IMG/VR virus record: IMGVR_UViG_2671180422_000003
Location: 1 to 13,716 of that record
DNA: 13,716 nucleotides
Source: a virus
Taxonomy: Duplodnaviria > Heunggongvirae > Uroviricota > Caudoviricetes
Reading direction: 5' to 3' (one strand)
Shown here: positions 9,001-12,000 of the stretch, piece after piece
How positions within the stretch are numbered: the stretch's first letter is position 1
Layout: every line of letters starts with the position of its first letter
Position numbers: made by a program

Positions 9001-12000
9001 ATCTCATTGCTGATGCTTGATATTGAGCATCTTGCGCGCGGTAAGGGGCTGCGTTGAGATAAGAGCCAGTCATTACAAATACCAGGATTTAGCCTCGCAT
9101 TCGCGGGGCTTTTTATTGCCATTACAAAAGCCACTCCCTACAGAGTGGCTTTGATAATGGCTTATACCCTACACGGGATAGCTTAACTGATATCCCTTTT
9201 AACGGATAAAGGTATTCAAGCCTGACACATCATGCGCTGTATCGTCGCCGTATTCCCGTATTAACAGAGACCGTAGCCCGACGGGGAACTCCTTCTGCGC
9301 GAGTGTGCGGGAATAATCAAAAACGATGCACACCGGGTTTTTACCGCGTTTATGGTTCGCGGGTTTGTCCCTCATGCTCGCCAGTCCTGTGCGGGGGTGG
9401 AAGAAACAGGACACTTACACAGATTCTTGTGGGCACGATGCTATGCCTTTCTGGATTATCCCGATGCCATTCATGCAAGGCGTTGTATCAGACGTTCGTC
9501 AGAGCTGTCAGGCTGACGGGTCCTCCCGGTGGGGTGGCCTGCCACGGGGCGGGAGCGTCGCGGAAAAAGGCTAGTTTTTGAAATTTTATTCGTCATCACC
9601 ACTACTGTAATGTATTGATATTACGGTGATTTTATTTTTATGGTGTCGATTTTGATTGTTTTTTGTTCACCACTAACACCGTTTGCCTAAAGTTGTTCGC
9701 AAGATGCATGTTTAAAACATTCTGGAGCGGGTATGGATCGAGAGTTAAAAAATCTGACGCTGAATATCAGTCAACTGGCGGCACTGTCAGGTGTACATCG
9801 CCAGACTGCTGCGGCAAGGCTGCAAAATCTACCCGTTGCAGGGGGGCATGAAAGCAACCTCAAGCTTTATCGGGTGGTTGATATTGTGTCGGCATTTCTG
9901 GCATTACCACCGCCGGTTGCAGAAGGCGAAATGGACGCGCATGAGCGCAAAGCCTGGTACCCGACAGAAAGTGGCGTTTATCCGTCAGCTTAAAGAGCAG
10001 GCAACCCGCCTGAATCTTTCATCTTCTGAGTTGCTTCGTGCTAAGGCAGCCCAGCTGGGGGTAAGCAGTGCTGCAGAAGTGTATATCCGCAAAATGGAGC
10101 AGGCAGGAAAAGCCACGCATTCGCTGGGTCTGAAAAGTGCAGCAGCCCGCCAGGAGATAGGCGTTCTGATAGGTGAACTGGCCCGCGGCAATTTAGGGGC
10201 GCTGAGGGGATCCGGGATAACGCTGGCTAACCGTGCCGGATGGATAGACACACTGATGTCACCGAAAGGCATGATGCTTGGCGGGGTTATTGGCGGTATT
10301 GCCGCGGCCGTCTATGGTCTGGGTAAAGCCTGGTATGACGGTCAGAAGGAGGGGGAAGAATTTAACCGCCAGTTGTCGCTGACGGGGCATTATGCCGGAG
10401 TCACTGCCGGGCAGCTGTGGACGCTCAGTCGTGCTATTTCCGGGAATGGTATCACGCAACATGCTGCAGCCGGTGCGCTGGCTCAGGTGGTGGGGAGTGG
10501 TGCATTTCGTGGAAACGATATCGGTATGGTGGCGAGAGCTGCCGCACAGATGGAGCGATCGGTTGGCCAGTCGATCAGCGATACCATAAATCAGTTTAAG
10601 CGGCTGAAGGATGATCCTGTACCTTCTGCCCGTAAGGTGAATGGTAAGGCGCTTTCAGCGGATATAACACTGACGCCGAAAGATATTGGTACGCTTAACT
10701 CAACAACAATGTCATTCAGCGGTGGTGCTGGTTGGTTCAAATTAGCAACGGTAACCATGCCACAGGCGAGTTCTGTTGTTTCAATTACGTTGATTGGTGG
10801 CGCGGGATTTAACGTGGGGTCACCTCAACAGGCAGGTATATCTGAACTTGTTTTGCGTGCAGGTAATGGTAATCCGAAGGGGATTACTGGTGCTTTATGG
10901 CAGCGCACATCGACAGGGTTTACAAATTTTGCCTGGGTCAATACATCTGGTGATACTTACGATATTTACGTTGCAATCGGAAATTTTGCGACTGGTGTAA
11001 ATATTCAATGGGATTATACCAGTAATGCCAGCGTGACGATTCATACGTCACCAGCATATTCTGCTAATAAGCCGGAAGGGTTAACGGACGGTACAGTTTA
11101 TTCACTCTATACGCCATCAGAGCAGTTTTATCCGCCTGGCGCACCAATCCCGTGGCCATCAGATACCGTTCCGTCTGGCTATGCCCTGATGCAGGGGCAG
11201 ACTTTTGACAAATCTGCATACCCGAAACTTGCAGCCGCTTATCCGTCAGGCGTGATCCCTGATATGCGTGGCTGGACGATTAAGGGCAAACCCGCCAGTG
11301 GTCGTGCCGTATTGTCTCAGGAACAGGACGGCATTAAATCGCACACCCACAGCGCCAGCGCATCCAGTACGGATTTGGGGACGAAAACCACATCGTCGTT
11401 TGATTACGGCACTAAATCCACGAATAACACCGGGGCGCATACCCATAGTATTAGCGGGACCGCAAATAGTGCCGGTGCGCACCAACACAAGAGTTCCGGT
11501 GCATTTGGTGGCACGAACACGAGCATTTTCCCTAATGGTTATACCGCGATTTCAAATCTAAGCGCGGGGATTATGAGCACAACAAGCGGTAGTGGCCAGA
11601 CTCGTAATGCAGGGAAGACATCATCAGATGGTGCTCATACCCACTCGCTGTCCGGCACTGCTGCAAGCGCAGGCGCACATGCACATACTGTCGGTATTGG
11701 TGCTCATACGCACTCCGTTGCGATTGGCTCACATGGACACACCATCACCGTTAACGCTGCTGGTAACGCGGAAAACACCGTCAAAAACATCGCATTTAAC
11801 TACATTGTGAGGCTTGCATAATGGTATTCAGAATGAGTGAACAACCACGGACCATAACAATTTATAATCTGCTGGCCGGAACTAATGAATTTATTGGTGA
11901 AGGTGATGCATATATTCCGCCTCATACAGGTCTGCCAGCAAACAGTACCTATATTGCACCGCCAGATATTCCGGCAGGCTTCGTGGCTGTTTTCAACAGT

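Follow-up and report, generated by a model that had tools for sequence, protein, structure and literature searches.

Two collinear deletions as the probable origin of a terminase, tape-measure and tail-fibre scar in a cryptic mEp460-like prophage

On the best explanation available, the late operon of an mEp460/cdtI-type prophage beside prfC is a non-functional remnant in which the 5' stub of a small terminase gene (terS), an internal fragment of the tape-measure gene and the distal tip of a side tail fibre gene (stf) have been brought together in front of an intact tail fibre assembly gene (tfa). Two collinear deletions of a genome resembling phage mEp460 or the CE10 prophage very probably left this arrangement, in which tape measure and fibre are joined in frame by chance and the product is likely a pseudogene. 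This confidence attaches to the explanation as a whole, including a recurrent site at the right end of the second deletion. The DNA analysed, hereafter the window, is the entire 13,716-nt stretch of IMG/VR record IMGVR_UViG_2671180422_000003 (positions 1 to 13,716).

Judged from its sequence, the window is a cryptic mEp460/cdtI-like lambdoid prophage adjoining prfC. It differs by 3 SNPs over 10.2 kb from the closed genome of E. coli strain 26561, which carries both scar junctions in identical form, where the near-identical locus closes with dinI-prfC-osmY and where the scar pieces are already pseudogenes in the PGAP annotation. The scar is known from these two non-identical sequences, and its double junction was absent from every other of 5,426 complete E. 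coli genomes. Chromosomal integration, as expected of a cryptic prophage, is seen at the prfC locus of strain 26561 and at yjjG-prfC for the intact CE10 prophage, which carries an integrase. Gene order and integration site are the same in the window as in mEp460, phage cdtI and CE10, and nucleotide identity reaches 97–99.8% across the early-right, Q, methylase, lysis, cos, terS and tape-measure segments. These relatives, in contrast to the window, are complete elements, and their fibre tips are other alleles. Window positions 3312–9959 track mEp460 37704–44510 and then nt 1–252, after which collinearity jumps to 10035–10698 and next to the fibre tip. An exception of ~490 nt (7958–8450, part of the lysis cassette) matches CE10 and not mEp460. 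At the same chromosomal site CE10 has the same lysis and methylase proteins as the window plus a full late region; it carries a reverse transcriptase and SLATT pair where the window has a 167-aa ORF. Alignment to mEp460 and CE10 showed the window to lack terL, portal, capsid, tail shaft, J, lom, most of the tape measure and the 5' part of the fibre, together with the replication genes. The element is collinear with an intact lambdoid phage except for deletions that take virion-essential genes, the pattern of a defective prophage.

The cryptic prophages of K-12, Qin (nohA-stfQ-tfaQ-pinQ) and DLP12 (nohD, then tail-fibre-assembly fragments), resemble the window in having a Nu1-type packaging gene directly before a fibre remnant and tfa, in the loss of all head and tail genes and in an intact lysis cassette upstream. 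They differ in retaining no tape-measure fragment, and the window element lies at prfC and is of mEp460/cdtI type. Qin shares sequence with the window only over 11124–12383 and has other breakpoints, which makes it uninformative for the recurrent fibre endpoint described below.

The terS stub (DUF1441/Nu1-like; 9733–9959, forward strand) consists of codons 1–75 plus 2 nt of a 164-aa gene, a full-length homologue of which is present in the CE10 prophage. By nucleotide mapping, window 9708–9959 equals mEp460 nt 1–252, and the last 200 nt up to GCCTGGTA are 100% identical to terS of both mEp460 and CE10. The reading frame departs from the gene at 9959 and continues for 11 stray codons in tape-measure DNA to a stop at 9993, so that 9733–9993 matches only positions 1–76 of the 147 in the DUF1441 profile of Pfam and not the full domain. 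The tape-measure piece (9960–10621, forward strand) is in a different frame from the stub and holds codons 184–404 of 1021. Window 9958–10621 corresponds to mEp460 nt 10035–10698, within the tape-measure CDS at 9487–12552, with 98.9% identity, and the fragment is 99.8% identical to tape-measure genes of many E. coli prophages. In the ORF that starts at ATG 9941, Pfam detects TMP_2 (PF06791) at residues 51–235 (E 5e-41); the domain itself is there, and the N-terminus and tape_meas_lam_C of a complete ~1,000-aa tape measure are not.

The distal part of the fibre (10622–11821, forward strand) comprises the last 399 codons plus the stop, with the receptor-binding region, Collar and His-rich repeats, and equals codons 589–987 of an intact 987-aa Stf (locus L004). 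Tip and tfa are collinear with the L004 locus, with 18 mismatches in 1785 nt. Pfam places Collar at residues 400–447 of the fusion ORF from ATG 9941, plus Phage_fiber; phage_tail_N (PF08400) and Phage_fiber_2 (PF03406) were found only in the intact 987-aa homologue, and the tip accordingly has neither the N-terminal tail-attachment domain nor the fibre repeats. The tfa gene (11821–12405, forward strand; 194 aa), whose start overlaps the fibre stop codon, is intact. Its product matches positions 1–130 of 131 of the Caudo_TAP profile (E 2e-44), it lies directly after the fibre gene, and the annotation of strain 26561 lists it as an intact CDS. A conserved block spanning the tfa 3' end and DNA just past it (12260–12459, forward strand) is 82.8% identical to mEp460 22732–22931, downstream of that phage's own, different fibre gene, and marks the right-hand edge of an exchangeable tip-plus-tfa module. 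Its first ~120 nt (mEp460 22732–22854) lie ~1.5–1.65 kb past the fibre breakpoint in 8 of 11 mapped scar loci; the other three end before this position.

At junction 1 (9958–9961) the break falls at 9959/9960, between terS sequence ending in GCCTGGTA and tape-measure sequence beginning with CCCGACAG. Three-way comparison of the window with mEp460 terS and the mEp460 tape measure gives a microhomology of TA; the join makes GGTACC, and ~9.8 kb is gone relative to mEp460 and CE10. At junction 2 (10619–10622) the break at 10621/10622 joins tape-measure sequence ending in GATGATCCTGTA to fibre sequence beginning with CCTTCTGCCCGTAAGG, over a microhomology of GTA and in frame. Natively, the tape measure continues as CCTGTA/AATGCC and the intact stf reads GGTCGGGTA/CCTTCTG. 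An initial annotation of this DNA had proposed a scar of three distant late-module pieces, made by two deletions and followed by an intact tfa, and the mEp460 mapping and Pfam assignments bear it out, together with the missing large terminase, portal, capsid and tail-shaft genes and the in-frame joining of the fibre domain. The two comparisons it proposed came out in its favour, the N-terminal part of the ORF being clearly related to tape measures and the whole ORF not aligning end to end with any single family. Details were refined: the terminase is truncated after 75 codons and not about 60 residues; the tape-measure segment is internal and out of frame with terS; and the first junction lies in the range guessed for it (9930–9960), whereas the second was placed too far to the right (10640–10700).

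We infer from these junctions that a genome arranged like phage mEp460 or the intact CE10 prophage would have lost ~20 kb by two collinear illegitimate deletions. The first would have run from terS codon 76 to tape-measure codon 184, using the TA microhomology, and the second from tape-measure codon 404 to fibre codon 589 (~10 kb), using GTA. Their product would be the terminase stub, a 221-codon tape-measure fragment fused by chance in frame to the fibre tip, and the intact tfa. The same prophage has a third, unrelated deletion with a TGA microhomology, which points to ordinary decay in this element.

A simpler terS-fibre scar (L002) occurs in the Qin locus of E. coli 97.3 and in five other complete genomes (6 of 5,426). 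Its terS breakpoint (after GCCTGGTA) and fibre breakpoint (before CCTTCTGCC) are identical to those of the window, and the last 200 nt of its terS stub match at 100%. It differs in having no 662-nt tape-measure fragment, in its chromosomal locus and upstream DNA, in the pinQ gene that follows and in the terS and fibre tip being out of frame. The window carries a GTACC direct repeat with one copy on each junction (9957–9961 and 10617–10621), and recombination of the two copies would yield exactly the scar of the six other genomes. The common terS breakpoint speaks against the two-deletion reading, since two fully independent random deletions would not predict it. One possible though rather unlikely explanation is that the window-type scar is the ancestor of the terS-fibre scar, a third deletion between the GTACC copies having excised the tape-measure fragment exactly. 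Such an event would reproduce the L002 junction to the base, would account for the terS breakpoint by descent and would fit a persistently active right-hand site. However, the two scars differ in prophage locus and in upstream sequence, their tips are set apart by six SNPs in the first 840 nt, one of them 38 nt from the junction, and the window type is known from a single lineage.

The reverse order of events, with a tape-measure fragment inserted into a pre-existing terS-fibre scar of the 97.3 Qin-locus type, is improbable in our view. Insertion could have proceeded by two template switches, or by integration of a phage circle and subsequent deletion. Base-for-base agreement of both outer breakpoints with L002 favours it, the microhomologies it would use (TACC on the left, CCTG..TA on the right) are slightly longer than those of the deletion reading (TA and GTA), and the terS site is otherwise native, in 107 of 107 IMG/VR loci, so that independent reuse of this site is unexpected. 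Nevertheless, insertion takes more steps than two deletions, and the fragment and the DNA on either side of it are collinear and belong natively to one mEp460/CE10-type genome. Furthermore, no prfC prophage with a simple terS-fibre scar was found; the best such scars lie at another locus, are ~85% identical just upstream of terS (91% when the full 608-nt block, terS stub included, is compared), and have a tip that is 2.4% divergent. We retain two collinear deletions as the preferred history.

The long mechanical ORF (9791–11821, forward strand) runs for 676 codons from GTG 9791, with ATGs at 9848 and 9941, and takes in terS, read in an alternative frame, as well as the tape-measure fragment and the fibre tip. 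Q-dependent late transcripts that start upstream would still extend through this fusion region. In strain 26561 PGAP treats the ORF as an incomplete 'tape measure family' pseudogene, and an accidental pseudogene fusion is most likely what it is. Joining at junction 2 had a one-in-three chance of being in frame, and of ten independent scars that end at this fibre nucleotide, the window scar alone continues a long upstream ORF in frame; in 9 of 10 sister scars a stop codon lies 1–76 codons upstream of the tip. Selection for in-frame fusions was rejected on this count of one in ten. No ribosome-binding site could be read from the sequence, the Shine-Dalgarno-like AGAAGG closest to ATG 9941 being 14 nt off, and no convincing promoter of the fusion ORF's own was seen. 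Given the frame counts, the start signal and promoter that were not found and the loss of the N-terminal domain that fixes the fibre to the tail, expression as a working fibre is predicted to be unlikely, and we infer that the ORF is silent. The initial annotation had regarded the long ORF as kept and its fibre tip as potentially expressed; with terS and tape measure out of frame and an in-frame join at the level of chance, neither proposal holds up well.

There is very little reason to favour a functional chimera maintained by selection, such as a free receptor-binding protein or a superinfection-exclusion factor. An open frame of 626–676 codons whose end is translationally coupled to an intact chaperone gene, and which follows an intact Q gene and lysis genes in the late transcription unit, is what such a protein would call for. 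The missing start signal, promoter and tail-attachment domain, the stops in the sister scars, the PGAP annotation and the restriction of the arrangement to one lineage all argue against it. Any leftover role is probably exerted at the DNA level, with the tip-plus-tfa cassette available to infecting lambdoid phages by homologous recombination. The recombination reservoir suggested earlier is plausible, and recombination of Qin and Rac stf-tfa with lambda, shown by experiment, provides a precedent (PMC3945230). An assembly artefact at repeated prophage sequences is scarcely credible: E. coli genomes do carry multiple copies of tape-measure and fibre-tip sequences, but the same junctions stand in a closed genome 3 SNPs from the window, and overlaps of 2–3 nt are too short for assembler joins.

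The second deletion was not random, its right end being a site in stf (TA/CCTTCTGCC) common to at least ten other independent truncations. Overall, at least 11 truncations of independent origin, spread over five or more prophage loci, have their right end at the fibre breakpoint. Among IMG/VR and fetched loci, 45 intact flanks and 10 distinct foreign flanks meet CCTTCTG at the same base, and an eleventh scar, ET791, does so without TA (GGCTG/CCTTCTG, where the native partner goes on GCCGAG). All mapped truncations at this breakpoint are collinear deletions of 1 to ~35 kb, and four scars were assigned to different intact alleles by the SNP patterns of their tips. From 70 nt upstream to 169 nt downstream of it, no further scar junction was found. 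Partner left flanks resemble CGGGTA well above chance whereas right sides do not, and this similarity is limited to the 6 nt left of the break (positions -1 to -6). The footprint consists of a fixed 5' side, partner similarity on the left only and one junction with no shared bases. A fixed endpoint combined with left-only partner similarity suggests a fixed strand end at the fibre site. On our best reading, a hypothetical one, the top strand is recurrently discontinuous at the fibre nucleotide, or this nucleotide is in some other way a privileged acceptor, to which the 3' end of the upstream sequence would be joined after ~6-nt pairing with the strand complementary to the fibre left flank. More tentatively, and with appreciable doubt, 10621/10622 might mark a new kind of site-specific DNA transaction in the tail-fibre genes of lambdoid phages and of at least one P2-like phage, perhaps a strand-specific nick or a privileged strand-joining point, by which tip-plus-chaperone remnants would be made repeatedly. 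The site could be part of the machinery that shuffles tips between phages. Neither a nuclease or recombinase nor an IS copy, a strong DNA structure or a known recombination site turned up in searches at the breakpoint. A 23-mer scan found no copy in GTDB species representatives, metagenome contigs showed intact flanks only, and literature searches found no description of this endpoint.

Several candidate causes were tried and were rejected or found no support. Crossover sites of the Din family (pix/gix/cix, for Pin and Gin) were defined as 26 bp long, with two inverted half-sites of 12 bp each (..AAACC NN GGTTT..) around a central dinucleotide at which crossover takes place; in a search that recovered the e14 pix sites as a control, the best fibre match agreed at 11 of 24 positions and was off-centre from the break. 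No inverted second copy of the fibre site was found in the window or the intact loci. A lambda cosN-like site agreed by eye at 9 of 12 bases, but its nick positions misfit the break and such matches occur at chance frequency. The phage's own att core has no similarity to the fibre site, and a DNA hairpin at the intact site was discounted (z -0.9). The intact site does include GGTACC; restriction there and religation was dismissed, as other GGTACC sites in the late regions of CE10 and mEp460 do not serve as partners and several partners share only TA. Long imperfect homology between partner and fibre flanks was weak in an ungapped test (P about 0.01) and confined to the last ~6 nt, and TA as an obligatory core is ruled out by the ET791 junction. 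An IS at the site was not seen, all 45 IMG/VR loci with the left flank running straight into the tip; one left-flank-only match, inspected in a complete genome, had an IS66 element elsewhere in the gene. A strand-specific nick site of the rolling-circle or HUH type is not among the rejected causes; only its footprint is seen, and no nickase was identified.

Known systems with similar products are instructive. The IS-excision enhancer IEE is reported in >30% of E. coli assemblies (PMC9943667). IEE-dependent IS excision resembles the fibre truncations in giving deletions of a few nt to >40 kb to one side of a fixed point, joined by microhomology. It differs in needing an IS at the exact base, where none was seen, and the left flank that the partners resemble is that of the fibre itself; an IS would have parted it from the right flank. 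Int-promoted deletions of the lambda b region end at att, and Michel and Ehrlich are said to have described deletions at the replication origins of plasmid pC194 and phage M13 with one end fixed at a site-specific nick. In these cases one endpoint is likewise fixed to the nucleotide and the other variable, the variable sites being similar to only a few bases flanking the fixed break on one side. Unlike them, the fibre site lies within conserved coding sequence, and no origin, Rep protein or relaxase, att site or recombinase is known or was found there.

As a product of prophage decay the scar itself is routine, and its worth is that of a base-precise example with known intact relatives. The recurrent endpoint matters more than the scar. 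If truncations end at one nucleotide again and again and spare nothing but the host-range cassette, decay would be partly directed and not random, and bacteria would then stock ready-made fibre tips in a standard format. This would bear on host-range change in temperate phages, on the origin of 'domesticated' prophage fragments and on illegitimate recombination in E. coli, and the fibre site offers a concrete sequence for testing the process.

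The window (13.7 kb) is E. coli DNA and from 3500 to 13716 is identical at 10,214 of 10,217 bases to a cryptic prophage beside prfC in strain 26561. All three differing bases lie within the first 90 nt of tfa, indicating that the window derives from another isolate or assembly with the same structure. These sole differences, at 11825, 11858 and 11907, span 83 nt at the 5' end of tfa, and at each strain 26561 carries the base common in other tfa copies; their clustering points to either a mutation cluster or a brief tract of gene conversion in the source of the window. Phage mEp460, as well as cdtI and the intact CE10 prophage at the same site, agrees with the window in gene order and sequence. 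Left to right, the window comprises a repressor region, truncated replication module, DUF968/HNH gene, Q, DNA methyltransferase, holin, lysozyme, Rz, cos region and terS. The methyltransferase (6621-7673) matches a type II methyltransferase model (E 3e-152), with no restriction partner found within the window. A 167-aa ORF (12931-13434) without a match in Pfam or PADLOC occupies the cargo slot between tfa and dinI. Because this slot holds a reverse transcriptase and SLATT gene pair in CE10, the ORF may be an unrecognised defence or moron gene.

The initial annotation read 9733-11821 as a multi-deletion scar of a Nu1-like stub, a tape-measure segment and a fibre tip followed by tfa. Pfam searches and nucleotide mapping recovered every piece, and the reading is correct. 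ORF 9733-9993 covers profile positions 1-76 of the 147 in DUF1441, the family of Nu1-like small terminases; the full-length CE10 homologue has 164 aa. The long ORF contains TMP_2 (E 5e-41), then Collar and Phage_fiber, and the next gene is a complete Caudo_TAP tfa. Nucleotides 1-252 of mEp460 correspond to window 9708-9959, and 10035-10698 to window 9958-10621 (codons 184-404 of a 1021-codon tape-measure gene); window 10622-11821 represents codons 589-987 of the intact 987-aa side tail fibre of IMG/VR locus L004. Junction 1 (slash, break) reads ..GCCTGGTA/CCCGACAG.., where native terS runs on as TCAGTC and ..GAGGCTA precedes the native tape measure. Junction 2 reads ..GATCCTGTA/CCTTCTGCC.., where the native tape measure runs on as AATGCC and ..GGTCGGGTA precedes native stf. 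Microhomology is TA at junction 1 and GTA at junction 2. Relative to mEp460, approximately 9.8 kb and 10 kb are missing, including every head and tail-shaft gene. Of 5,426 complete E. coli genomes, strain 26561 alone has both junctions together, and no phage record contains them.

A third scar, with TGA microhomology, lies in the replication module at 3314/3315, suggesting that the element decayed through several ordinary illegitimate deletions. Here mEp460 34354 is joined to 37704 and a KilA-N gene is truncated; neither mEp460 nor CE10 has an equivalent of window 2991-3262. Around junction 2, window 10582-10662 has an unusually stable predicted single-strand fold (z -3.9, 0/200 shuffles), and there GCGGCTGAAGG of the tape measure (10600-10610) and CCTTCTGCCCG of the fibre (10622-10632) are almost complementary. 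A fold of this kind was not seen at the intact fibre site (z -0.9).

The proposal that the deletions kept a meaningful ORF was not supported, and the long fused ORF is probably not meaningful. The tape-measure fragment and terS are in different frames, and upstream the long ORF extends through an alternative frame of terS that happens to be open. At junction 2 the frame is kept, for which the prior chance is one in three, and in 9 of 10 scars with this fibre endpoint a stop codon precedes the tip by 1-76 codons. The closest AGAAGG to candidate ATG 9941 is 14 nt upstream, and no promoter of its own stands out. By Pfam, the tip lacks the N-terminal domain that anchors the fibre to the tail. Both pieces are already pseudogenes in the public PGAP annotation of strain 26561, and the scar is of a known type. 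Low-level expression via late read-through from the Q-dependent promoter is possible.

The fibre breakpoint is shared with other prophages. IMG/VR was scanned for the 23-mer starting at the break and left flanks were read, giving 45 intact and 10 foreign flanks, each of the latter meeting CCTTCTG at the identical position. Foreign partners are two sites approximately 250 nt apart in one gene upstream of the lysis cassette (L023, L033; translated flank ParB/methylase-like by eye), the region just upstream of terS (L043), terS itself (L002, Qin locus of strain 97.3, six genomes, in which the terS and fibre bases at the window's two breaks are joined without intervening sequence), large terminase (L006/L013, also strain A14), major capsid (VE-T2), tape measure (the window), J (L034), the start codon of a short stf allele (L054) and the int-proximal region of a lambda-like remnant at att-lambda (L008). 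In an eleventh case, a P2-like prophage of strain ET791, the portal gene is joined at the same base. The L023/L033 gene appears to be the counterpart of the window methyltransferase in other prophages, judged by position upstream of lysis genes and a by-eye reading of the translated flank rather than by alignment. Each case is a collinear deletion, the sizes ranging from 1 to about 35 kb; scars occupy at least five chromosomal loci, and tip SNP patterns tie L054, L008, L034 and L043 each to a different intact allele (four); together these features are evidence for independent truncations. In this data set the 70 nt before the site and the 169 nt after it contain no other scar junction. The intact left flank always continues into the normal right side (45/45), indicating that the site acts as a fixed right end only. 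The flank is intact in 1,387 of the 1,450 carriers among complete genomes; scars are a minority, though diverse. In L004, three tandem 132-nt units (4615-5010; 44-aa Phage_fiber_2 repeats, 64-76% identical) finish within a few bases of the breakpoint; unit number differs among alleles, with upstream homology of 106-502 nt across loci.

Partner flanks end in TA in 10 of 11 cases and have T at -2 in all 11. At positions -3 to -6, 24 of 44 cells match the fibre's CGGG (25% expected), a tally made by hand from the eleven listed flanks rather than tool-computed, per-position counts having been computed for ten. Likeness wanes beyond about -6, and native right sides of partners show no resemblance to the fibre right side. 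Mismatched positions keep the partner's own bases in every case. The ET791 partner, natively ..GGCTG/GCCGAG, has no contiguous base in common with the fibre at the break, but its junction falls on precisely that position too. The simplest reading of these flanks is that TA/CC is where fibre DNA starts, either as a fixed 5' end of the top strand or as a privileged acceptor point. The upstream sequence would be joined there by its 3' end, which at that moment would pair imperfectly with the complementary strand of the fibre's left flank; terminal pairs would weigh most and G.T would be tolerated. A similar footprint is left by deletions that have one end fixed at a rolling-circle origin nick, and by lambda deletions that Int promotes with one end at att. 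A fixed end can also arise when IEE promotes IS excision with deletion on one side (PMC9943667), but the site showed no IS, and one lying there would have split the left flank from the right. The known site types and DNA structures compared with this position all failed to account for it.

The terS site used in the window and L002 is native in 107/107 other IMG/VR loci, making its shared use unlikely to be coincidence. The window type could be an intermediate toward the terS-fibre scar: GTACC direct repeats lie on both window junctions (9957-9961 and 10617-10621), and recombining the two copies gives the L002 junction exactly. Recent direct descent is opposed by differing chromosomal loci and upstream DNA and by six SNPs in the first 840 nt of the tips. 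Alternatively, a pre-existing terS-fibre scar could have captured the tape-measure fragment. In IMG/VR locus L126 (junction ~580, minus strand), large-terminase breakpoint ..GGGGATA/ is joined to a J site, natively ..GCGCTA/TCTTGG, and the same breakpoint meets the fibre site in L006, L013 and A14. With L126, a second left breakpoint is seen with two different right partners, parallel to the terS case.

The suggestion that the fibre tip and tfa serve as a recombination reservoir is plausible and has published precedent in experiments in which lambda exchanged sequence with the stf-tfa regions of Qin and Rac through homologous recombination (PMC3945230). At the tfa 3' end, a conserved block (12260-12459) offers right-hand homology even for phages with other tips. 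What raises the finding above routine is that lambdoid tail-fibre genes are truncated repeatedly, to the nucleotide, at the point where junction 2 falls.
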